Shown here: in pieces, positions 5,451-56,882 of the stretch
How the letters are laid out: each line of letters begins with the position of its first letter
Position numbering within the stretch: the stretch's first letter is position 1
DNA from: a virus
Taxonomy: Duplodnaviria; Caudoviricetes
Virus record (IMG/VR): IMGVR_UViG_3300044616_001723
Span: 1 to 61,833 of that record
Length of the DNA stretch: 61,833 bases
Strand: one strand, 5' to 3'
Translations under genes and position numbers: made by a program
The notes under the pieces: model-generated
What the model saw: only the letters and a program-made list of their open reading frames with translations
Told to the model about the DNA's origin: nothing
Databases searched by the model: none

Positions 5451-6614
5451 TCACGCGCTCAGAACCTTGCGAAGCGTATCGAGTTGCTTCGGCTTGATCT
5501 TCCACTTCGTTGCCATGCTGGCGACACGAGTCTCGAAAACCTGTTGCTCGGCAGGGGACTTCTGGCTGGGAATCTTCACCGTCGTTACACCCTTCGGTGC
5601 AACCGGCGATTTCGCCGGAAGACGCGCGTTTGCACCCATATCCGAGACAAACGACGCAACCGTGGCAAGCGATGCCTTCCGCAGCAATGGCACGGCCGTT
5701 TTCGGGATGATCGACAAGTTTTTCTCGATCAACGCGTCTCGAGCCTTGATATTTGCCGCCTTCGCAAGTTCCTGATTCCTGATAATCGCAAGGCTCGCCG
5801 CAACGCTCGTGTCATCGTCGACAGCTTGCGCTGCCGCTGCCTGCTTCGCCTTGTCCTCATCGGACATGCTCGCCGCCTTCTTTGCCTCTTCTTCGAGCGC
5901 AGCGACAAGCTTCGCCTTGTCCTCGTCGGACATTGCAGCAGCACCGTCGTCCTCTTGTTCGAGCTCGCCAGCGGCCTGCATCGCGGCGTTCGCGTTTTCA
6001 CCGAGAGCTTCGGTCAACGCCGCATTTTGCTCCTTTGCCCACGTCGCGAGAGCTTCGTTCGAAGCGCCCATGAGCGCGAGCAACGTAAGCAGCGTGCGGC
6101 CTGCCAAAACCAAATCTTGCTGATCCATGCCGATCCCTTTCCTGCCCTTCTCTGCTGCAAGGCTTGCGAGCCTCCAGCAATGCCACGTCTTCGGATTGTT
6201 GGTCAGACCGACGTTATTGACTCGCGTTGGAATCGCGATGTCGCCGACCATCTTAAAAGAATACCACGGGGAAAGATAGCGAACTTTTGGCGGGTTGCAC
6301 AATAACCACCCTTCGACCATCGGATCCCACTCGACACCAATCGCCCACACTTCGCCATCGCCACGGGCTTCGAGCTTTTGGATCCATCCGGCAGCGGCTC
6401 TATTCTCCGGCGGGGCCTCGAGCGTCGTCGTCGCGTGGTCATGGTCGATCACCATGACGTTTCCGCGCGCATTAAAGATCGCTACCAACGCGTCTGCGGC
6501 TGGCCTCGTCATTCGATGCGGGCCGTCGTCGGTCATGAAATCGCCCGCGGGAAAAATGCGAAACTCCCGTGGCGCCTCTTTTACATCTGCGCTTGCGCCT
6601 TGCCGATCAGACAT
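5451..6614 (-). CDS. Prohead protease/scaffold (Mu protease I-like)
   Basis: IFPAG, VIDHDHAT, AAGWI, VEW, YLSP, GLTNNP motifs; Ala/Glu-rich helical C-terminal scaffold with MSDEDKAK repeated twice. Confidence 0.9.
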   Translation of the reverse strand: MSDRQGASADVKEAPREFRIFPAGDFMTDDGPHRMTRPAADALVAIFNARGNVMVIDHDHATTTLEAPPENRAAAGWIQKLEARGDGEVWAIGVEWDPMVEGWLLCNPPKVRYLSPWYSFKMVGDIAIPTRVNNVGLTNNPKTWHCWRLASLAAEKGRKGIGMDQQDLVLAGRTLLTLLALMGASNEALATWAKEQNAALTEALGENANAAMQAAGELEQEDDGAAAMSDEDKAKLVAALEEEAKKAASMSDEDKAKQAAAAQAVDDDTSVAASLAIIRNQELAKAANIKARDALIEKNLSIIPKTAVPLLRKASLATVASFVSDMGANARLPAKSPVAPKGVTTVKIPSQKSPAEQQVFETRVASMATKWKIKPKQLDTLRKVLSA

Positions 6615-8661
6615 GTGCGTTCTCCTGAGTTTGGCTTGGCACAATAACACTACCAGGCGACTTTTGCCCTATGGCTCTCCACGTAATAGGCCACTTATGG
6701 GGCTGTCCCCTCTTGCCAGGCACCATGCGACGGACGCGCTCGATGCCACATTGCCAGCACCTATTTACCCGATTGTGATCATTGCACCGATCAACAGAGT
6801 GCTCGGTCATGAGCCGCGCCAATTCCACTGCATCGGCATCTGCCGGCATGTCGTCCGGCGATGCTTCGCCTTCGTCTTGTGCCGCTGGCGGAAGTGCCAT
6901 CATGTCCGCGCGAGCACTCGCCTGTTCACCGTCAGGCAATGACGTCGTTTCATCAGCTCCGTCCGCTATGGTTTTTCTCGGCGCTGCATGAAGGATTCCG
7001 ACGATGGTCGCAAGATCGACTTCTCGCCACCCGCCAACAAGCTCCGGCCTTCCGACGAGCCGATACCATGCCTCGCGTGCGGACTGCATATCGCCGAACC
7101 CGACAAACAGCTTTACCTCGTCAGGGTTGCCTTCGTGGTCCAATTGTTTGAGCACAAACAGCCTATTCGTGCCCCTCATTGGTCCGACAAATACGTCGAT
7201 CGCTTCGCCGTCTTCGCCCTGCGTCCCTGGGATGTACCCATAAGCAATGGATCCCATCGACACAGCCCAAGGCACGCCACGCTCGTCCGTGCCCGTGCGG
7301 ACACTACCGGCTGGATACTCGACGACAACCGGAAGGCCATCGACGATCACCGTTGGATCTTCGAGCGGCTCCAAGTCTTCGATCTCTATCCCGGCAAGAG
7401 CCGCGAGAGGTTCAGCCTTCACCCGCTTCCCGCGCTTCACGAGCGAGGCATCTGCCTTGACCAGACCATCACCGTACGCGATAAGCGCATCGCCAACGGC
7501 CTTGCGATCTCTCGGCGGGGTTGGATCCCACTCGGCGCGTGGACACGGGTAGCCTTCGCGTTCCGCCCACGGCTCGAGCCCGTACCGCTGAACGACCTCA
7601 GAAAGGTGATCCGCATATTCTTCAATGAACGATTGTGCGGTGTTTTCGTGAATGTCGCCCTTCGACCAACCAGTGCCAGTTTGACCAGACGTTACGGTTT
7701 GCCCTGACAATGCAGTGGCAATATCCGCATCGCTTTCGTTTTTCGTGGCGGTCCACTGCTGGTAACCTTCGCCGGAAATGGACGTGTGTTTTATGTCGTA
7801 GCCCTTTTCGAGGGCCATGACCGGAGGCGTCGGACTCGAAATGATATGCGCCACGATCGCATTCGCGTCTTCGTCGCGGCTTTTCCCTTCGGGCGTTTCG
7901 AGCCACGTGATCCCAAGCGCATGCCGGGCACCTGCCACCGTCCTTTGCTCTTGCGCCTGAATCTTGTCGAGCCACGCCTTACCGCACGGACGCCATTTCC
8001 CATGCAGCCAAAATCTATTCAAGCCCCATGGCGCAAAGACAAACCATCGCCCGTTTCCAGGCTCGATGATGTGTTCGCCATCTTCACCGATAATAAAAAG
8101 GACCTGCTGCCGTGTTACTGGATCGCGTCGCCAATTGATGTGCTGCGCTTCTACAAAATGCAGAACGGGAAGCCCCGTTTTTGGGCATTCGACGAATTCG
8201 CCAAAACCAGCACCGAAGAGAATGCCCCAAATGATGATTCGAATGAGAACGGCGGACGGGAACATCTTCCAAAAGATGCCATCGGTACGCAGGTCTGGTT
8301 TTCCCGCGAGCTTGTAAACAAGCTCCGCAGCACCGTCGAATGTCAACGGCAGCCGAATCAGACCAGCGGCTTGGCTTTGAGTGACACCGCTGATAATCCC
8401 ATCGCCAAGCATCGACTCGACGAACTGCGCGACCATGAGCAACGACTGACCATCCGCGGCAATCATCGCCGCGACGTCGTCGCCTGGATTCCAGACGAGC
8501 CTTGTGCGGTAGTAGGCAACGCGTAGTGGGGCAGATGCAGGCCCGCCCGCGCGACCATCACTTTGACGATGCGCGAGCGAGGTAGATGTCTGGCCTGCCG
8601 GCGGTAATGCCGGTGTGCTTGAGCGAGTCAAGCGAGAAGCTAGCCAACGGAAGACACCCAC
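6607..8661 (-). CDS. Portal protein (DUF935-like) fused to inorganic pyrophosphatase-like domain
   Basis: IATALSGQTVTS portal motif and position; C-terminal YGYIPGTQGEDGEAIDVFVGP...DEVKLFVGF PPase-like motif. Confidence 0.8.
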   Translation of the reverse strand: MGVFRWLASRLTRSSTPALPPAGQTSTSLAHRQSDGRAGGPASAPLRVAYYRTRLVWNPGDDVAAMIAADGQSLLMVAQFVESMLGDGIISGVTQSQAAGLIRLPLTFDGAAELVYKLAGKPDLRTDGIFWKMFPSAVLIRIIIWGILFGAGFGEFVECPKTGLPVLHFVEAQHINWRRDPVTRQQVLFIIGEDGEHIIEPGNGRWFVFAPWGLNRFWLHGKWRPCGKAWLDKIQAQEQRTVAGARHALGITWLETPEGKSRDEDANAIVAHIISSPTPPVMALEKGYDIKHTSISGEGYQQWTATKNESDADIATALSGQTVTSGQTGTGWSKGDIHENTAQSFIEEYADHLSEVVQRYGLEPWAEREGYPCPRAEWDPTPPRDRKAVGDALIAYGDGLVKADASLVKRGKRVKAEPLAALAGIEIEDLEPLEDPTVIVDGLPVVVEYPAGSVRTGTDERGVPWAVSMGSIAYGYIPGTQGEDGEAIDVFVGPMRGTNRLFVLKQLDHEGNPDEVKLFVGFGDMQSAREAWYRLVGRPELVGGWREVDLATIVGILHAAPRKTIADGADETTSLPDGEQASARADMMALPPAAQDEGEASPDDMPADADAVELARLMTEHSVDRCNDHNRVNRCWQCGIERVRRMVPGKRGQPHKWPITWRAIGQKSPGSVIVPSQTQENAHV

Positions 8662-10041: not shown

Positions 10042-11757
10042 TCACTGCTGCCGGAATCCCGTTGGCCATCCGTTCGTCGTGCGAACCCCTTGCATAGCCC
10101 CAACCACAAGCGGCTTCCTTGGGCCCATGGCTGCCTCTGCGGCCTTCTTTTCGTCTTTGCTCACGACTTCCGCGCCGATGCCAAACAGGCCGTCGATGAG
10201 CGCAGAGACGGCGTCGGCGTGTTTCGTCGTCGTTCCCCTGCCATCGGCGAGATCCGCCACCGTCGTGCGCGGCACGATGATCACGATCTTGCCGTTTCTG
10301 TTCACGGCCGTGATTGAGTTGAGCTGCACCCGAAGCGATTCCCTTACTTGCTCCGGTAGCGAACCGAGACGAAAGCGGCGTTTCGCAAGCAAACCCTGCA
10401 AAACCGTATACCGCGCGATCTTTGCCTCATGCCCGTCCGGCGGATGACGCAACGTGATCCGATATGGATCCAAGTGCTCTTTGTACGCTTCCGAATAATG
10501 CCGGTCTGCCCACACCGATGCGATCTCGAAGCCTCGAAGGATCACGGCAAATTCTGTGCATGTCTTGCTCGGCAGCAGCGGTTGCCCCTTCGCCGGAGAT
10601 ACCTCGCGCAACGCTGGAGATCCATAAGTGCCGTCGTCGTACGCGTAGACGATTCCGAGCGCCGCCGAGTCCTTCGTAAAACCCAAGTCGCTCCCCGCGC
10701 TTCGGTCGATCGGAGCGTACTCCGGCAGCATCATTTGCAGCGCTTCCGCCACTGCTACTGCATCGAAGAACGAACGGCTTCCCTTCGGCAGCGGAATGGC
10801 CAGAAGCTCGCGATCTGCGTTGATGTCCCCGCCTGGCAGCGAACGCTGCGCAGCTTCGTCCGATCCGTCTGGATCGAAGAGCGGATTTAGCCACCTTGTC
10901 GGAACACGCGCGACGACAAGAGCATGCGCGTGTTTCCCCCAATTTGCCGCGATCAGCTCTTCCATGAGTCCTTCGCCTTCGACCCATGGCGTGGACACGA
11001 TCCAAACAGATGCGCCTCGAGCCAAGCGCGGGCGAAGGCCGTCGAACACGGCTTGATCGTTCACCGCTGCACCTGGATCGGCCGCGAAGAAACACGCCTC
11101 TTCTAGGCCGGCGAAGACGATCGTGAATCCGCGTGCAGCTTCGCCGCCCCTTGCTGCGCTGGTGACTTCGATGCGCACACGAGCGCCGTCAGGACGCTCT
11201 ATCGTGATGCTCTCTCGCGTGACCATCATCCGCCCGCGTTCGTCCCGAGCAACCGCCGCACTCAGTATCGGCGAACGTCGGATCATGCCGACGACAAACC
11301 TGAACGTTTGCTTCGCGTGCCGGCGCTTCGGGCCGATCAAAACGGCCGCTGCCTCTTCACCCGGAGCGAGCAAAGACAGGTCTGCCGTCCACGCACTGTG
11401 AACGCATTTTGTCGCTAGAAATCGCGAGGTTTTACCGCTTCCACGACCAGCTCCCAACGTGACGATTCGGGCTTGCTTTCCAATCGGAAGCATGGAGACG
11501 ACACACCCGAAGATCTGCTCTGCACGTTTGTCGTCGAGACGTGGACGAACCCCATCGCTTGCGTCGACGATCGCCCAACCAACATCTGTGTAAAGTTCTG
11601 GACGAACCCCTCTTGGATCGAGATACGGCCTTGCGAATTGGTCGCTTTCTAGAAACTCTCGAAACGATAGCTTCATCGACTGCGCCGCTTTTTTGCGCGC
11701 TATACGACGATCGATCGCCTCGACAAACGCACCAGATATCTCGTTCTGCTGACTCAT
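10042..11757 (-). CDS. terL: Terminase large subunit
   Basis: Walker A GRGSGKT, Walker B-like GLEEACF, IVSTP, nuclease motifs GSDLGFTKD and HADAVSAL. Confidence 0.93.
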   Translation of the reverse strand: MSQQNEISGAFVEAIDRRIARKKAAQSMKLSFREFLESDQFARPYLDPRGVRPELYTDVGWAIVDASDGVRPRLDDKRAEQIFGCVVSMLPIGKQARIVTLGAGRGSGKTSRFLATKCVHSAWTADLSLLAPGEEAAAVLIGPKRRHAKQTFRFVVGMIRRSPILSAAVARDERGRMMVTRESITIERPDGARVRIEVTSAARGGEAARGFTIVFAGLEEACFFAADPGAAVNDQAVFDGLRPRLARGASVWIVSTPWVEGEGLMEELIAANWGKHAHALVVARVPTRWLNPLFDPDGSDEAAQRSLPGGDINADRELLAIPLPKGSRSFFDAVAVAEALQMMLPEYAPIDRSAGSDLGFTKDSAALGIVYAYDDGTYGSPALREVSPAKGQPLLPSKTCTEFAVILRGFEIASVWADRHYSEAYKEHLDPYRITLRHPPDGHEAKIARYTVLQGLLAKRRFRLGSLPEQVRESLRVQLNSITAVNRNGKIVIIVPRTTVADLADGRGTTTKHADAVSALIDGLFGIGAEVVSKDEKKAAEAAMGPRKPLVVGAMQGVRTTNGWPTGFRQQ

Positions 11758-12794
11758 GCAGCCTCGGACAAAACTTTCCGAACAGGCGCAAGACACTCTT
11801 CGCAGATCGTGTCAACGATTTTGTTCACAGTCGTTGAGAAATGCGGATGGTTGATGACGTTGATCGTCGTGCCTGTCGGAAACAACCCGAGAAGCTTCCC
11901 GAGGCTGACGATCACGCCCTCGGCGGTTTTGATCGCCGCGCCGACTGCCTTCACGTTTTCCGCCGTCAATCCCCCTTCACCGTCTCCATCGCCGCCCGCC
12001 TTGGTGGTCAATAGCGACTTGGCCGTCGTCACAAGATTCTCCGCATCGACCACAAGCGCCTCGAGCCGGCCCCGGAAAGCTTCGGCAGTCGTGAGGTTTG
12101 CCCGTTCGAGCATTTCGAGCCGAGCCGCCAAAATTGCGCGACCAACGCATTCGTCCCGATGTCGCCGAATGCCAGTGTCCGACGTCCCCGGAAACATTCT
12201 TTCAATGCGTGTGTATGGGACGCCTTCGGCCATTGCATTCTCGATGGCCGTCCGTTCGTCGTGACTGCATACCTTGCACAAAGGGCCCGGCCTCGGCTTG
12301 GCCTGCACCAAAAGGATCGCCCTCGCTTGCTCTTCGGCGCTGACGTCGTTTTTGTTTTCTTCGGAACCATTTGTTGTGGTGGTGGATCCGCCGGTTGGGC
12401 CCGGTTCATCCGCCACCACAACAGCCACCACCGGCGCTTGTTCTGGTGGCGGATCGGTTTGTAGTGGTGGCTGATTGGACTTGGCGCTTGGTTCCGTTGG
12501 CGGGGCCTTGGCGTCCGACGCGTCATCGATTGGTGGGTCGGTCGGTACAGTTGTTTGGCGCGTTCCTTTTGAAGACGGCGGGTCGGTCCCGTGATTCCTT
12601 GCATGACGCTTCAGCGAACTTTCGTTCACCTTGAACCGACCAGCTATTTTTGCCCAGCTTTCGCCTGATTGCTCGCGCCCACGAAGAGCCGCATTTATCG
12701 GCTCGCGTTCGTCGTGGTTGCAGATCGTGCACCTCGTTCGATCCCCTTGGTCGCTTCGGTCGGTCGGATCGTTCGCTCCCGGTCGGTCGGTCAT
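11754..12794 (-). CDS. Putative terminase small subunit with two CxxCxH Zn-HTH domains
   Basis: Overlaps TerL start; CTICNHDER...SLKRHARNH and CKVCSHDER...GIRRHRDEC; C-terminal helical LGKLLG region. Confidence 0.65.
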   Translation of the reverse strand: MTDRPGANDPTDRSDQGDRTRCTICNHDEREPINAALRGREQSGESWAKIAGRFKVNESSLKRHARNHGTDPPSSKGTRQTTVPTDPPIDDASDAKAPPTEPSAKSNQPPLQTDPPPEQAPVVAVVVADEPGPTGGSTTTTNGSEENKNDVSAEEQARAILLVQAKPRPGPLCKVCSHDERTAIENAMAEGVPYTRIERMFPGTSDTGIRRHRDECVGRAILAARLEMLERANLTTAEAFRGRLEALVVDAENLVTTAKSLLTTKAGGDGDGEGGLTAENVKAVGAAIKTAEGVIVSLGKLLGLFPTGTTINVINHPHFSTTVNKIVDTICEECLAPVRKVLSEAA

Positions 12795-12823: not shown

Positions 12824-12974
12824 ACTGCCACGTGTGATTGGTTCCTTTTATCGATTCTAAGTGGTGGCGGATCCGCCGCTTACTTCGTACGAATCACTAA
12901 TTTACGCGCGACGATGCAGCGCGTTGGGTGGATTCGATGAAGGACCAGTGTCCGTCTGCATGCTAAAATGGCGC

Positions 12975-30978: not shown

Positions 30979-31434
30979 TCACGGGGCGCGAGACTTTCGT
31001 CTGCCGACTTGATCGGCACGCATGTGCTCGCGTTTACGCGCATCTTCCAGCGCCTTGTCTCGCTGTTCTGATGGAATGTGGTTCACGAACGTGGCAACAT
31101 CGGCAGGCGTCGCACCAGCGCACCACGGCGGAACTTGCTCGAGCGTTGACCACATGCATCTGCCTTCATCGGGCAATTTCAGAACGCGTTCCTTGCTGCC
31201 GGCGAACCGTTGCCTTGGGCAACCTGATCCGCCTTGCTGCTTCACTTCGGCGCATACCACGCACTTGTTCAGGAATCGATGCAGGTAATCGACCTTGTCT
31301 TCGGCGCTCTCCGTTGCGCGTGTCTTATTGTAGGCGGCCCGTTCCTCGGCAGCCCTGGCACTTCGCCGATCGGCGCACTCCATGCACTTGTCGGCACTCG
31401 GCAAGCAGGGCGGCCCATTCTCGCATCCGAGCAC
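30979..31434 (-). CDS. Hypothetical Cys-rich protein
   Basis: CMEC and CVVC motifs. Confidence 0.45.
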   Translation of the reverse strand: MLGCENGPPCLPSADKCMECADRRSARAAEERAAYNKTRATESAEDKVDYLHRFLNKCVVCAEVKQQGGSGCPRQRFAGSKERVLKLPDEGRCMWSTLEQVPPWCAGATPADVATFVNHIPSEQRDKALEDARKREHMRADQVGRRKSRAP

Positions 31435-31643
31435 GATCGGCTCGTCCGCGGTCCCTCATATCTTGAACTCGTGCAGGCGACGCCCGTGCGGGCATTCTTC
31501 GACGCACACTTTGCCGTGAGGACACTTGTGCGCGATGACCCGATCCACCGGGACCGCGCCCCACTTCGCCGCGCGCCATGGCTGAAGCGTCAGGCACCGC
31601 GGGCATTCGATAACGAACTTCGGGATCGGAACTTCTTTGGTGC

Positions 31644-32186
31644 TCATGGTCGCTTCGCGATGGCCATATCTTGCAAAAGTTCACGCACGAGCGCCCATTC
31701 GCGATTTCCGGCACCGCTCGCTACGTACACCCGCAGTTTCTTAAAGTTGTGCGAGTTCTCTCGGATGAAGTCTTCGCAAGCCGACTCGGTAAAACATGCT
31801 GTGACGAACTTCCACCGCTCCTTTCCGCGTTCGACACGTGACTCCTGCACCAAAAAGATCGGGTTATGCGTGGATTGGTTGTCCTGATCGACGATTCTTT
31901 GGCCAATCGCCCGCAGTCGCCCGAGCAGCACGACCTTCGACGAATCGATTATTTCGCCGCCTTTCGCGCAGATCAAGACGAGTTCTGCACAAATAGCACG
32001 TCCAAGAATTCCAAGTGGCATTTCAAGCCCTATGGTCCCACCGTCTGGCGTCCGAATCTTGCCACGGAAAACGAACTGACCTGGCCATATTTTAGAAAGT
32101 CGCTTCTCTTCGCAGTCTTTTTGCACATGACCATCTAAGCCGCATTTTTTGCACGTATTCAATGACGCATCCATATTCGTATTCAC
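31644..32186 (-). CDS. Hypothetical protein with CCHC zinc knuckle
   Basis: CKKCGLDGHVQKDC; C-terminal FVTACFTESACEDFI phage-type motif. Confidence 0.6.
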   Translation of the reverse strand: MNTNMDASLNTCKKCGLDGHVQKDCEEKRLSKIWPGQFVFRGKIRTPDGGTIGLEMPLGILGRAICAELVLICAKGGEIIDSSKVVLLGRLRAIGQRIVDQDNQSTHNPIFLVQESRVERGKERWKFVTACFTESACEDFIRENSHNFKKLRVYVASGAGNREWALVRELLQDMAIAKRP

Positions 32187-33277
32187 TCCGAAATGTCCTC
32201 GGTTCCTCGCGAACTTGCCGCCGCTGCCTCTTTTTTGCGAATGTTCCGTTGGGCGAATTCGCGCCCACGTGCATCTTTTTGATGCTTTTTGACCAGAGCG
32301 TCGGTCCCCGGCGGAAGCACCGGGCCAACATGCGCATCACGAAGTCTTTGTTCGTGCTCCTCTCGCGCCTCATCTGAAATGGGCGTGTCTGGCATGAGCC
32401 CCCAAGGATCCGGTTCGCTCGCGGGTATCGACGGCAATAACACGTCTCTGTCGTCCTCTTGTTCTTCGATCTGAAGAATTCTTTTGTACGTTAGTCGCAA
32501 TGCGTACGTCGACGCACTGCTTGTACGAAAATGATAATCCTGCGATTTGTCGCTCGGTATTATCATATCCGTCTCGATGTATTCCAATTGCGCCGGGTTC
32601 GTCCTGACGTATCGAAGCAAGTACAGCAACGTCAGTACCGGCGTTCGACTGACGATTTTCACGGTTTGGCTGACCTGCGTCAAAACGATCCCCTCGGCGA
32701 GCAACGCTGCACGACCGGCCCGAATGATGTCCGTCGTGCGTGCCGTTTTGTATTTCCGTCCGTCCGCCGCCACGGCCGGCTCGGTTTTTCGAATTGTTTC
32801 CACCGCCATTTGCGCGCGGCCCAAGGCAGCATCGAGCGTATTGGCCTGAAGATAGTTCCTTGCCGCCGCGCTATCGTTGCCCTCGTTTGCCGGCGCGAGT
32901 CGAAGCTGTGGAGCGATCCACGCCGCCGGTGGCGGTTCTGATGGCTCTGCCGCTTGTTCTTCCTCGTCTTCTTCTTCGTCCGGCTGCTCTTCGTGCGTTT
33001 CCTGTTCACCATCGCTATCGCCGCCACCACCAGATCCCGGAGCGTCCGCCACTTGTGCCGGTGGCTGGTGGCTGGTGGCTGGTGGCTGCTCTGAATCCGC
33101 GGAAGCTGGTGCGCCCGGAAGGTGGTGGCCTTGATCTCGATGCCGGCGAAGTGGTGATTCCGCCACTTCGAAGCGCCGTGCGACTTCGGCGATCATGTGT
33201 TTGACAGAAAGCGCCGCGTCTATTTCGACGCGTCTTTCTTGCTTGCAAATGCCGCATTTGGGCTGTCGTGTCGACAT
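32183..33277 (-). CDS. ERF-family single-strand annealing protein with N-terminal Zn-HTH
   Basis: LDAALGRAQ...YKTARTTDII...LLAEGIVLTQ...SSASTYALR...EDD ERF pattern; N-terminal CGICKQERRVEIDAAL...LRRHRDQGH. Confidence 0.7.
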   Translation of the reverse strand: MSTRQPKCGICKQERRVEIDAALSVKHMIAEVARRFEVAESPLRRHRDQGHHLPGAPASADSEQPPATSHQPPAQVADAPGSGGGGDSDGEQETHEEQPDEEEDEEEQAAEPSEPPPAAWIAPQLRLAPANEGNDSAAARNYLQANTLDAALGRAQMAVETIRKTEPAVAADGRKYKTARTTDIIRAGRAALLAEGIVLTQVSQTVKIVSRTPVLTLLYLLRYVRTNPAQLEYIETDMIIPSDKSQDYHFRTSSASTYALRLTYKRILQIEEQEDDRDVLLPSIPASEPDPWGLMPDTPISDEAREEHEQRLRDAHVGPVLPPGTDALVKKHQKDARGREFAQRNIRKKEAAAASSRGTEDISE

Positions 33278-33415
33278 CCTCACCTCAATATCGAGATCCG
33301 CTCGATGCGTAGCGGGTCAAAGAAAGCCGCCCTTGACGGTGACTCGTTTGTCTCTAACGAACCTCGACCGTCCACCGCTTCACTGAATACACCACCACCC
33401 ACCACTTCGCAAGCG

Positions 33416-33440
33416 AAAAGTTCAAGACGTTAAAACTTTT
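33416..33440 (-). promoter_or_regulatory. 25-bp palindromic site 6
   Basis: AAAAGTTCAAGACGTTAAAACTTTT; 3 nt upstream of TTGCGA. Confidence 0.85.
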
Positions 33441-33826
33441 TTGGTGGCTGATCTGGTGGCGTGCGGTGACGTGTCACGGCTTGTCATTCTGGATTCTATT
33501 CATTCGCCCGCCCCGATGTTGGGCAGGACGTTCGCGCGTGTTCTACTCTTCGCGCAGTAGGCTTCGGGGCTCGGTGCTCTTCGCGGTTGCCGGGCCATGC
33601 CCGCCTTCTCCGCTGCCGCTTCCCGCCGAGCTGACCACGTGACGGATGCACACGAGCAAGGCGAACCGTAGCGCCATTCCAGCGAGAAGCAGGGCGGCCG
33701 TCTTCCCGCCCGGAATGGCCCAAAGCCCAACGATGACCGCGAACACTTCGACGGCGAGCGTGTCCGCGTACTTTTTGAACGATTTGACGAGCATGCCGCC
33801 ACGTATACACCATCCAACGCAGTGCG

Positions 33827-34447
33827 CTAGTTCGTTGCCTGCGCCCGACCCGATCCCATGTTGATCGGCGTCTTGCCCAAGATTCCGCATGCAATCTTGA
33901 GATCTTCCCACACCGTCGCCTTGGACTTCGGAACCCGAAGGCAATATGCCGGGTGAAACGTCGGGATCAGCTTTGCCCCACTCGGCAGATCGAACACTTT
34001 CCCGCGCACGTCCCCGAACTTCGAGAACAGCTTCGGCACGAGCACTTCGCCCGCCGTCTGACCTAGTGCAACGATCACCTTCGGCTTGACGTGCTCGAGC
34101 TGGGAAATCAGGTACGGCTTGCACGCGTCCACTTCGTTCGGCGCAGGCTTTCGGTTTTCCGGAGGCCGGCATTTCACGACGTTGCATACGTAGACTTCGG
34201 ATCGCTGGTATCCCATTGCCTCGATCATCTTATTCAGCAATCGTCCAGACGCACCGACAAACGGCTCTCCGCTCGCGTCTTCGTCCGCGCCGGGACCTTC
34301 CCCGATGAACACGAGTTCCGCATACGGATCCCCGCTCGCGAACACGACACGCGTGCGCTTTTCATGGAGACGGCAAAGCTTGCAGCTTCCCGCCCCCGCC
34401 GCCATCACCTGCAAAACATGTTTCCTCGAGTCTTCCGGCTGTCGCAT
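33827..34447 (-). CDS. udg: Uracil-DNA glycosylase, family 4
   Basis: CKLCRL, GEGPG, PFVG, NVVKCRPPENR, TFHPAY. Confidence 0.93.
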   Translation of the reverse strand: MRQPEDSRKHVLQVMAAGAGSCKLCRLHEKRTRVVFASGDPYAELVFIGEGPGADEDASGEPFVGASGRLLNKMIEAMGYQRSEVYVCNVVKCRPPENRKPAPNEVDACKPYLISQLEHVKPKVIVALGQTAGEVLVPKLFSKFGDVRGKVFDLPSGAKLIPTFHPAYCLRVPKSKATVWEDLKIACGILGKTPINMGSGRAQATN

Positions 34448-36359: not shown

Positions 36360-36384
36360 AAAAGTTCAAGTCTTTAGAACTTTT
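36360..36384 (-). promoter_or_regulatory. 25-bp palindromic site 7
   Basis: Identical to site 1; 3 nt upstream of TTGCAC. Confidence 0.85.
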
Positions 36385-38815: not shown

Positions 38816-39196
38816 TCAGTTGCAGCACCAGATCGGATTCGGCACGCCTGTAGACGGCGTTTCAATAAAGAACACATTGCAGTGCTTAGGCGGGTCGACC
38901 GGGTATCCACACAAATATCCGGTCTCCCCGTGCGCACATGCCTTCTCGCGCTTCGGCCAGCAGTCTCGTTCGGGCTGCTGGCATAGGTTCCAAGGCTGCT
39001 CGTAGAGGCATTCCTCGGCAGGCGGCGTCTCTGCCGAATTCTGCTCGCTTTCTCCATTCCCGACACACGACTCGGATCCCTTCGACTCTTCGTCTTGGCA
39101 TTCCACCACCACTGCGGCGCATCCGCCACCACCAGCCACCAACGCCGCCACCACCAACCACCGCCCCATTTTTACTTCGTACGATTCGCGATTCAT
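38816..39196 (-). CDS. Cys-rich putative lipoprotein
   Basis: Hydrophobic signal ending GGC; many Cys; ends IWCCN. Confidence 0.6.
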   Translation of the reverse strand: MNRESYEVKMGRWLVVAALVAGGGGCAAVVVECQDEESKGSESCVGNGESEQNSAETPPAEECLYEQPWNLCQQPERDCWPKREKACAHGETGYLCGYPVDPPKHCNVFFIETPSTGVPNPIWCCN

Positions 39197-39343
39197 CTGA
39201 TGATCCCTTTCCGCGGCGCAACGTTTCCACGGTTCGCCACGAAACAAGCCAATTTCCACGCCATGGATCACATGACGCTTGCAACGATAATGCCTGTCTG
39301 AGACGTCGCGGTACGACTTTCTTTCTTTTTACGTTTCGTCACG

Positions 39344-54864: not shown

Positions 54865-55713
54865 TCAAACCCCTTTCCAATATCGTGCGGTTTGCAGCCG
54901 CGTGAGTTCATTGTGATCGCCAACAATGATCGAATCGTTGGCCCATGTTCCGTCTGGCATGCCCGGCGTTCCCGCCGCTGCCGTATGATCGAAGCTACTC
55001 GGATCGAATGCCAAGACAATCCATTCGATCAATACATCTGCCGGTTTGAGCAGATCCGCCGTCTCGCGAGTACGTGTCGCGTATTCGAGGAATGCGTTCG
55101 TCCCGATCGTCGGGAAGTCGATCACTCCATCGAACCTGATCTTCGTCTCGCCAAACGTGCTCAGACCATCACCGAACGGGCCTTCGATTTCTGTCGCAAG
55201 CGCCGCCGGAACCCAAATAATGAGCCACGCGCGCTTTTGCTTATTGACGCCGTCCCAATCAAAGTTTGTCGGCGTCTGTACGTGTTCGACGAACGTGCCG
55301 TCTGAATTGCGAATTGTCCATCGTGCACTCGTCGTTCCACTCGCCCAACCGAAGTTTCTGACGAATGCCATCTTCGGCGGGTTCGGTCCCCAGACGGCCG
55401 CGATCATGCCCAAAACGACGCGCGTCCTTCCCGACGCGGCCCATATTTGCCGCCACAATGACGCACGCTGCATGTACGCTCGTGCGGTCTCGAAAAACCC
55501 CGGCGGAATGTTCCGGTCTTTCGAGATCAATGGGGGCGCATCGGCAGCGACGTCATCACCGAAAACGTCCAGAATGCCCATGCGCACGTCCGAAGCTGCG
55601 GACATGAGCACGTCCAAGACGAGCGCCCACGCGTCCATAAAGTCCCTGCCGGGGCCTTCGGCGAGCCAACCCGGCAAAGCTTCCTCATATTCGCGACTCC
55701 CGAGGATGCTCAC
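54865..55713 (-). CDS. Baseplate wedge protein (gp48/gpI-like)
   Basis: Follows J-like gene; ALPGWL...DRNIP...AYMQR pattern. Confidence 0.6.
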   Translation of the reverse strand: MSILGSREYEEALPGWLAEGPGRDFMDAWALVLDVLMSAASDVRMGILDVFGDDVAADAPPLISKDRNIPPGFFETARAYMQRASLWRQIWAASGRTRVVLGMIAAVWGPNPPKMAFVRNFGWASGTTSARWTIRNSDGTFVEHVQTPTNFDWDGVNKQKRAWLIIWVPAALATEIEGPFGDGLSTFGETKIRFDGVIDFPTIGTNAFLEYATRTRETADLLKPADVLIEWIVLAFDPSSFDHTAAAGTPGMPDGTWANDSIIVGDHNELTRLQTARYWKGV

Positions 55714-56882
55714 TTGTCGATCCTTTCAATCGCGATCGACACGGACCCGAGCACAGGGACGCCGCTGGTGCTCACGCTCGTGTCCACGTCCACAGAATCG
55801 ACCAGGAATATCGCCGGATGCGCGGCCGATATGATCGCAACGATTTCCGCGACGTACACCTTGCCCGTCGCTTGCACGTTCGATTTGAAAAACCCGCCGA
55901 TTGGTGCCGTCCGGAAAAACTCGACAAGCAACACTTTCGCCAATGCGACAAGATCAACGTTCGCAGGAACAGACCCACGTTTGACGTACAGCGTTGCGGA
56001 AACGTTGACCACTACGTTCGTCGCGGACGCTACCGTTGCCGTCGTGCACAACGGTTCTACCTTTTCGACGATTGCCGTCTGGATCAGGGTGACGTCCGAT
56101 CCATCGACCGCCCCCGCGGGCCCCGCGATGTATATGGCCAGCGTGCCGTCTCCAAGCGGGGCAGGAATGTGCACCCGCGTGATCGGTATCGTTGACCCAT
56201 TAGAACGTTTCGTGCTGCGCGCGACGCGGTCGTAGGCGAGCTTGGGGCCGCCGTCCGAACGCTCCGCAGCAGCGCCGCGAGCTCGCACCCGAAGATCGGC
56301 ATCACGTTCCTGATCCTGTCCGACCCATGCACTTTGCTGAACAATGTGCAGGCCGATTTGATCCGAGACCACCTCGAGCGGATCGACGCCCTGGACGAGA
56401 ATCGAGCCGCTTCCGATTTCTTCGGCTCGAAAGAGGATGTCGGGAAGCGTTGGGTATGGGCCCGATCCGCTCCATGCAGCGAGATTGCCGCCAGTGACGT
56501 TCGTGTAAAACTTGCCATTGATTCCGCGCACGCGGATATCGCCAGCCGAAAAGCTGAACACGTCGCCATCGCGGTTCTCTATGTCGGCAAAGCCTTCGGA
56601 GAACGTTGCTTCGTACCGCAGCGTCCCATAGAGCGCGAACGCGACGAGCGTCAAAATATCGCCGACGCAATAATCGAGGAATGGTGCGGACAGGATCGGC
56701 AGAACGCCTTCGTTCCAAAGTTTGGCAATGATTCTGGCGATGATTTCCAGTATCGCATAAACCGGCTCTCCGGTTTGCCATGCCGTTGTCGGCAAACCGA
56801 TCACGACAGCCGCCTCGAAAAAGAGGTCTAGGATCTCTTGCTCGGATAGCGGTTTCAATACGTCGGTTATGGGGACAGCCAT
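55710..56882 (-). CDS. Baseplate J/gp47-like protein
   Basis: GQDQERDADLRVR...GPKLAY...GTLAIYIAG. Confidence 0.88.
   Translation of the reverse strand: MAVPITDVLKPLSEQEILDLFFEAAVVIGLPTTAWQTGEPVYAILEIIARIIAKLWNEGVLPILSAPFLDYCVGDILTLVAFALYGTLRYEATFSEGFADIENRDGDVFSFSAGDIRVRGINGKFYTNVTGGNLAAWSGSGPYPTLPDILFRAEEIGSGSILVQGVDPLEVVSDQIGLHIVQQSAWVGQDQERDADLRVRARGAAAERSDGGPKLAYDRVARSTKRSNGSTIPITRVHIPAPLGDGTLAIYIAGPAGAVDGSDVTLIQTAIVEKVEPLCTTATVASATNVVVNVSATLYVKRGSVPANVDLVALAKVLLVEFFRTAPIGGFFKSNVQATGKVYVAEIVAIISAAHPAIFLVDSVDVDTSVSTSGVPVLGSVSIAIERIDK

Follow-up and report, generated by a model that had tools for sequence, protein, structure and literature searches.

ERF-type annealases, the superfamily (Pfam PF04404) whose type member is Erf of phage P22, serve in recombineering and are regarded as having no preference for particular sequences. 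Small terminases (TerS) of tailed phages, such as that of Thermus phage G20C (PDB 4xvn), are small proteins encoded upstream of the large terminase gene terL and carry an N-terminal three-helix helix-turn-helix (HTH). The window analysed here, which is the whole 61,833-base virus record IMGVR_UViG_3300044616_001723, contains an ERF gene (32183..33283, minus strand) whose predicted product starts with a putative zinc-binding HTH, a module that also occurs twice in the protein encoded at the small-terminase position (11754..12794, minus strand). The homology of these domains and the fusion of one of them to ERF are almost certainly real, and the zinc-HTH-ERF protein is a new and rare domain architecture of a known kind of recombinase.

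An ERF annealase fused to a putative zinc-HTH

The ERF gene encodes 366 amino acids from a GTG at 33283, or 364 when it is started, as in the source's own call, at an ATG two codons later. By its family matches, the product is a single-strand annealing protein of the ERF superfamily: residues 153-280 (32444..32827, minus strand) match Pfam ERF with 26.9 bits against a cut-off of 25, and the protein matches phrog_155, "Erf-like ssDNA annealing protein", with an E-value of 3.4e-5. Pfam ERF is also matched at E<=0.01 by seven of the eight members of the clade, the best match reaching 9.5e-7. A profile of the eight ERF homologues found none of the PDB sequences at E<=1, and the core resembles Atlas structures weakly (template modelling score 0.34-0.42). 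The zinc-HTH domain, delimited by BLASTP, alignment and an AlphaFold2 model, covers residues 5-56 (33116..33271, minus strand) and is followed by an acidic, proline-rich linker, residues 57-145 (32849..33115, minus strand), in which a cluster of TGGTGG sites is found. The linker is without predicted secondary structure up to about residue 135 in a low-confidence full-length model, and the ~90 residues between domain and core are poorly conserved across homologues.

The proposal of the initial annotation that the ERF N-terminus is homologous to both domains of the TerS-position protein was borne out, since whole-protein BLASTP gives E-values of 8e-8 for domain 1 and 1e-4 for domain 2 and since C, C, R, I, A, F, R-H-R and G are invariant when the three domains (ERF 5-56; TerS-position 17-72 and 168-222) are aligned. 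A hidden Markov model of the three copies did not find a fourth in the six-frame translation of the window, the next match having an E-value of 0.043. All three domains present the ligand pattern CxxC ... H-x(2-5)-[HC] around a helical core of ~35 residues, the putative zinc ligands of the ERF domain being C10, C13, H48 and H53. Structure prediction, a check that had been suggested for these domains, was run on the ERF domain and returned a three-helix HTH (84-row alignment; predicted local distance difference test, pLDDT, 73) with helices at residues 18-26, 31-38 and 42-51 after the CxxC knuckle. The best, weak neighbours of this model in VIA-align are tri-helical DNA-binding HTHs, with the Tc3 transposase and the Sin recombinase both at Z 5.2, followed by GcrA (Z 5.0), Hin (Z 4.2) and the G20C small terminase (Z 4.1). 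In the PDB, a sequence search with the domain profile gave a MerR-type HTH as its best match (E 0.024), and NCBIfam holds nothing for the three window domains. The module reads as a homeodomain-like HTH in which zinc, as judged from the ligand pattern only, would link an N-terminal knuckle to the end of helix 3.

The fusion is rare and conserved. A word-index search of 5.8 billion clusters returned eight ERF-like proteins (49-100% identity, 356-382 amino acids), and the ERF core alone (residues 141-340) returned the same eight. All eight homologues, which lie on separate contigs, have retained the N-terminal domain, and C8, C11, H46 and H51 do not vary among them, so that the search for zinc-HTH-ERF fusions called for by the initial annotation had a positive outcome. 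A misassembly or a gene-call artefact was considered as the source of the fusion and rejected, because the same architecture recurs in eight homologues on separate contigs. Fusion proteins make up two of the 150 listed representatives of the domain family (P0001 and P0007). The other 148, which are new representatives, were scanned for further partners, and the only ones were a ribbon-helix-helix (P0016), a Terminase_4 C-terminus (P0079) and a stray arginase fragment (P0044). On contigs of 67136, 61556 and 37943 bases, the fused ERF is accompanied each time by a two-domain TerS-position protein; the pair is a trait of the clade. Alignment with ERF retrieved no relative among viral or genome contigs and one weak, linker-level match among metagenome contigs; a terL query retrieved no relative among viral contigs, and tblastn of the ERF and TerS-position proteins found no match in the phage collection. 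A literature search on annealase domain architectures turned up no ERF-HTH fusion among the papers listed, and the words zinc, HTH and fused are absent from the available main text of a 2024 survey of 10,280 annealase models.

The TerS-position protein and the zinc-HTH family

The TerS-position gene (11754..12794, minus strand) lies directly upstream of terL (10042..11796, minus strand; identified by Pfam and PHROG), on the same strand, and overlaps its start by 43 nts. Its 346-residue product contains zinc-HTH domain 1 at residues 17-72 (12579..12746, minus strand), a Pro/Thr-rich linker of ~95 residues, zinc-HTH domain 2 at residues 168-222 (12129..12293, minus strand) and a helical C-terminal part (11757..12128, minus strand) that is homologous, by hhalign, to the C-terminal part of family members of ~160 residues. 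Because residues 172-332 align with columns 6-145 of a profile of 60 ordinary members (hhalign 99.1%, E 7e-19), the protein can be described as a complete ~160-residue family unit preceded by an extra zinc-HTH and a linker. The same arrangement of two domains is found in a homologue of 45% identity. No TerS family of Pfam, PHROG or NCBIfam matches the protein at E<=1 or E<=10, and because no curated TerS family matches, it is named here by its position and not as a proven TerS. A second CxxC pair (CEEC) is present near its C-terminus, at residues 331-334 (within 11757-11800, minus strand), and is invariant in three aligned homologues.

The family to which the module belongs is large. When the three-copy profile was searched against 1.84 billion cluster representatives, 2908 protein clusters matched at E<=1e-3, of which 28 reached E<=1e-10 and 2 reached E<=1e-30. 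In a survey sample of 156 proteins (148 new representatives of the 150 listed and the eight ERF homologues), the domain starts within the first 12 residues in 140 and is present once in 114 proteins, twice in 30, three times in 5 and four times in 7, the pattern CxxC...H-x(2-5)-[HC] being found in 201 of 217 domain instances. Most members have ~100-260 residues, with the N-terminal domain followed by a helical region, and a typical member has ~160 (median 160.5 in 64 single-domain N-terminal proteins). Pfam has nothing for most of the 148 representatives, some showing marginal matches to HTH_23, HTH_28, HTH_38 or psq, and most are without a match in PHROGs, about ten matching phrog_664, "DNA binding protein", weakly. 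A few members match the TerS PHROGs 83, 51, 4102 or 1482 or Pfam Terminase_4. In the curated libraries, no family at or above its curated cut-off models the zinc-stapled HTH as such.

A tblastn search of 50,697 phage records with the ordinary member P0038 gave matches in six. The family gene overlaps the terL start and is annotated as a "hypothetical protein" in Meiothermus phage MMP7, Thermus phage Riverbug and the archaeal virus vir515. The features listed under the match in MMP17 include a terminase ATPase subunit, in Methanoculleus virus L4768 the family gene lies two genes upstream of terL, and the sixth record has the same length and coordinates. From these neighbourhoods, the usual place of the module is that of a predicted DNA-binding head of a small-terminase-type protein, directly upstream of terL, and the family seems to be a marker of small-terminase-type genes in viruses of bacteria and archaea. 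In the Riverbug record (PQ109080.1), the gene that the depositors called 'TerS' lies downstream of terL, and the zinc-HTH gene at the terL start is entered as hypothetical; it may be the zinc-HTH gene that deserves the small-terminase label. Among the papers listed by full-text literature searches, none dealt with a zinc-HTH phage TerS. Defining the zinc-stapled HTH family would improve the annotation of a gene that is often left hypothetical, as it is in four records.

Relatedness of the ERF and TerS-position modules

The initial annotation had further supposed that the annealase shares its specificity with the packaging protein. When the ERF domain was compared by BLASTP with 220 domain instances, its best non-ERF matches were foreign (P0033, P0157, P0031, P0039, P0067 and P0084; 47-49 bits, 45-59% identity), and the TerS domains of the window were not among the first 14 matches. 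In a separate two-sequence BLAST, with a word size of 2 and other settings, the ERF domain scored 33.5 bits (41%) and 29.6 bits (29%) with the two TerS domains of its own phage. Each residue shared by ERF and either TerS domain is also present in 17% or more of the remaining 206 instances, and the rare residues of the ERF domain, namely G7, K24 (82% have G), M26, P40 in helix 3 and Q47, are not shared with the TerS domains. Because the family is so large, similarity alone is no sign of a common target. With foreign members scoring higher and no rare residue shared, the idea that the module of ERF matches the TerS domains in specificity is not supported by these comparisons. Against this reading, the domain tree (99 instances, 61 columns) is mostly unresolved, and in an approximately unbiased test the grouping of the ERF and TerS domains into one clade was not rejected (p 0.537). 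The ERF domain may thus have arisen from the TerS gene of the same phage.

The GTGGTGG(C) DNA word

The second element of that proposal was a DNA motif dispersed over the genome, and this motif proved to be real. Exact copies of GTGGTGGCKGA number 10, where 0.04 are expected, and 31 copies are counted, where 2.4 are expected, when one mismatch is allowed; the core of this motif, GTGGTGG, is the most over-represented 7-mer of the window, with 53 occurrences against 14.9 expected under a third-order Markov model. Within genes, it is found 31 times in the sense orientation, against 12.9 +/- 3.2 (maximum 21) in synonymous-codon shuffles, and 17 times in antisense, against 3.9 +/- 1.8 (maximum 10), none of 300 shuffles reaching the observed counts. 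The 53 sites are distributed over sense frames 0, 1 and 2 (19, 10 and 2), antisense frames 0, 1 and 2 (3, 11 and 3) and intergenic DNA (5). Since all frames are used, one DNA word encodes VVA, GGG, TT, PP or HH. Among the 12 distances of at most 70 nts between same-strand neighbours, four are exactly 21 nts and two more are 20 or 22 nts, with unrelated spacers, a spacing of about two helical turns. The GTGGTGG(C) motif is a real DNA-level feature that goes beyond composition, and it merits a separate study.

Both linkers are dense in GGTGGC-type repeats, as had been noticed. The part of the TerS-position gene encoding the linker contains a cluster of GTGGTGGC-type sites on both strands (12376..12474), and in TGGTGG density this linker (6 sites, 12377-12470) ties in second place with that of ERF (6 sites, 33024-33128). 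The densest cluster, 7 sites all on the sense strand, lies at 39103-39156 (minus strand) in the gene 38816-39271, and further clusters are located in SprT, methylase and structural genes. Because the densest and the other clusters sit in unrelated genes, the motif marks no unique pac site. The product of 38816-39271 has 151 residues and no family, and the cluster falls in a hydrophobic stretch rich in Gly, Val and Ala.

The fourfold GGTGGCT at 33060..33087 (plus strand) of the ERF linker was confirmed as a tandem repeat. It passes through the three frames in turn and is read on the minus strand as QPPATSHQPPA; as its unit has 7 nts, the gain or loss of one unit would shift the ERF reading frame. 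Contigs of two other runs contain the (GGTGGCT)4 piece in isolation, one of them at a depth of 403. More generally, the flanks of the GTGGTGG core hold little information and show a three-base G periodicity, and the sites mostly occur in low-complexity peptide contexts (TTTT, GGGG, VVV and PPP). In the linkers of ERF homologues, the word-encodable peptides VVAE, VVAD, VVAG, QPP and SGGG recur at shifting places, and VVA is kept in the 45%-identical TerS homologue, which hints that relatives keep the DNA word. The claim that the zinc-HTH domains bind the motif found no backing: no evidence ties the motif to the domain, and Meiothermus phage MMP7, an outgroup phage that has a single-domain family member, shows no enrichment of GTGGTGG (14 against 11 expected).

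Copies of the motif were also confirmed upstream of both genes, an exact one at 12861 and one with a single mismatch at 33441. The exact copy (12861..12879, plus strand) lies 67-85 nts upstream of the TerS-position start codon and overlaps the perfect 12-nt palindrome GGCGGATCCGCC (12866-12877). A second perfect 12-nt palindrome, GGTGGATCCACC, is present at 20802-20813; each contains two GGYGG half-sites, and both are intergenic, 72 and 27 nts upstream of gene starts, respectively. For GGNGGATCCNCC palindromes with at most one mismatch, the excess is marginal (7 against 2.6 expected, 2 of 100 shuffles reaching 7). A role as Chi sites was considered and rejected: the E. coli Chi octamer occurs 9 times (5 on the plus and 4 on the minus strand), three of them inside the 7-nt tandem repeat, and shows no strand polarity.

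Promoter-like palindromic elements

The window contains nine palindromic elements of ~25 nts, AAAAGTTC..N9..GAACTTTT, all at or between gene boundaries (19992-20002, 22188, 24602-24612, 27044-27054, 30955, 33416-33441, 36367-36377, 45387 and 53048). Where they were read on the minus strand, they are followed by TTGC(A/G) and, 17-18 nts later, by a TA-rich hexamer. TTGAACTTTT occurs 9 times against 0.14 expected, and the nine elements probably represent a phage promoter set with a shared operator. The ERF gene has an upstream region of ~540 nts, in which one of the elements (AAAAGTT..N..AACTTTT then TTGCGA; 33416..33441, minus strand) is located 140 nts upstream of the ERF start. It is flanked by four TGGTGG/CCACCA sites (33392..33459) and is the only one of the nine with GTGGTGG in its spacer.

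Possible roles of the ERF module

The reading that we favour, and judge to be somewhat probable as a whole, is that the zinc-HTH is a flexible DNA tether for the ERF annealase; it includes the homology and the fusion, to which zinc binding, DNA binding and tethering are added as predicted properties. ERF would have gained, in one small phage clade, an N-terminal zinc-stapled three-helix HTH of ~50 residues, joined to the annealing core by a flexible, acidic and proline-rich linker of ~90 residues. The HTH would hold the annealase ring on phage DNA, probably on duplex DNA beside resected ends, and tethering would concentrate annealing on the phage chromosome. Such concentrated annealing could serve the circularisation of a terminally redundant genome or the formation of concatemers.

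Several points weigh against this reading. A duplex-DNA tether is one of several possible roles of an HTH. According to VIA-align's own note, Z values near 5 are weak and within the range of common arrangements, Foldseek found nothing in the PDB with the ERF domain model at E<=1e-3, and no solved structure of a zinc-HTH module was found. The full-length AlphaFold2 model of ERF, with a mean pLDDT of 45, is too poor to establish how the core folds or whether the linker is disordered. The ERF domain is also atypical, having Q after the CxxC where 84% of instances have H and K where 82% have G, and its function may therefore have changed.

Two other kinds of explanation give the module a different use. 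It could be a regulatory or protein-contact head, which represses its own or other phage promoters or docks ERF on a phage protein. Family members with 2-5 tandem copies exist, one of which was named AraC-like DNA-binding protein by its source, so that the module looks as though it were used as a transcription factor, and the ~540-nt upstream region of ERF, with its promoter-like palindrome flanked by GGTGG-type sites, would suit such a role. However, the ERF promoter showed no operator of its own, the palindrome being common to the nine promoter-like elements, and a fusion kept in all eight homologues with a long flexible linker suits the tethering of an enzyme better; a regulatory or docking head is hence considered unlikely. 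The model of the initial annotation, in which the TerS-position and ERF modules read the same word GTGGTGGC(G/T)GA and the annealase is sent to packaging sites or genome ends, would explain why GTGGTGG is so frequent (53 against 14.9), why it beats synonymous-codon shuffles and occupies all six frames and five intergenic places, and why half of the 12 close same-strand distances are 20-22 nts with unrelated spacers. The linkers of the two domain-bearing genes tie as second densest and both genes have upstream copies, and pac sites are located inside the terS genes of phages P22 and SPP1, which is counted in favour of this model. Yet the ERF domain is closer in score to foreign members than to the TerS domains and has none of its rare residues in common with them, unrelated genes contain the densest cluster (39103-39156) and others, MMP7 has a family member without enrichment, the flanks, poor in information and with a three-base G periodicity, resemble slippage-prone low-complexity DNA, and (GGTGGCT)4 also occurs alone in contigs of two other runs. 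We regard the same-word model as very unlikely, and give as little credence to the proposal that the two modules of each TerS-position chain and the single module of each ERF chain read GTGGTGGC pairs ~21 nts apart, with the annealase loaded at packaging-initiator marks. If true, it would describe a sequence-addressed single-strand annealing protein coupling recombination to packaging.

The GGTGGC-type repeats of the linkers could, on the other hand, be functionless, having arisen through slippage and biased repair in low-complexity coding DNA without any connection to the shared domain. The perfect fourfold 7-nt tandem of the ERF linker, the periodicity of the flanks, the low-complexity peptide contexts and the presence of the unit alone in unrelated contigs speak for such a process. 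Slippage as the sole cause would not lead one to expect that the sites outnumber those in synonymous-codon shuffles on either strand, that a 21-nt spacing recurs although the spacers are unrelated, or that both genes have intergenic copies beside them. We hold this origin to be possible but doubtful. Returning to the DNA tether, a natural annealase with a built-in DNA-binding head would reveal how annealing is localised by a phage, and its design could be copied to target recombineering proteins.

Genomic context

The genome has a G+C content of 57.7% and a 127-base direct terminal repeat, and a codon-usage model that was trained on Pfam-hit genes accepts 69 genes, all of them on the minus strand. 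By its family matches, the gene map indicates a tailed phage whose head module is Mu-like; it comprises a DUF2586 sheath (693-2480), a Mu-like protease (5451-6650), a Mu-type portal (6607-8661, minus strand) and baseplate J (55710-56882). Residues 438-535 of the portal also match the Pfam domain InPase (inorganic pyrophosphatase; 90.8 bits). The ERF gene belongs to a DNA-metabolism block with MazG, SprT, a HAD/PNK-type hydrolase, a uracil-DNA glycosylase (UDG; 33827-34447, close to ERF), a 5'-3' exonuclease and two DNA methylases. Directly downstream of ERF, three small genes (31644-32186, 31456-31647 and 30979-31434, all on the minus strand) encode Cys-rich motifs, as seen by eye in their translations. 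Scanned at a loose threshold, the product of 31644-32186 shows an N-terminus resembling a zinc knuckle (Pfam zf-CCHC, E 0.013) and matches phrog_3205, of unknown function. The three genes may be part of the recombination module.

Comparison with known systems

With the ERF superfamily annealases of PF04404, the protein of this window shares the core match above the cut-off and the location of its gene in a phage DNA-metabolism region near UDG. It differs from them by ~145 additional N-terminal residues, formed by the zinc-HTH and the linker, and has 366 residues where the nearest ERF clusters in the ESM Atlas, a comparison to be taken as a lead only, have 147-193.

The module itself has its best structural neighbours among the homeodomain-like tri-helical HTHs of Tc3 (1tc3, Z 5.2), Sin (2r0q, Z 5.2) and Hin (1hcr, Z 4.2), which, unlike the window module, are without zinc ligands. 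At the level of sequence families, HTH_23, HTH_28, HTH_38 and psq of Pfam match family members below threshold or marginally. In the available part of a 2022 review of small terminases, zinc is mentioned solely for herpesvirus TerS. The N-terminal HTH of the G20C TerS has the same three-helix arrangement and belongs to a small protein encoded upstream of terL; it is a weak neighbour of the ERF domain (4xvn, Z 4.1, root-mean-square deviation 2.4 over 43 residues), from which it differs in that the window module would be stapled by a CxxC knuckle and an H-x3-5-H/C pair.

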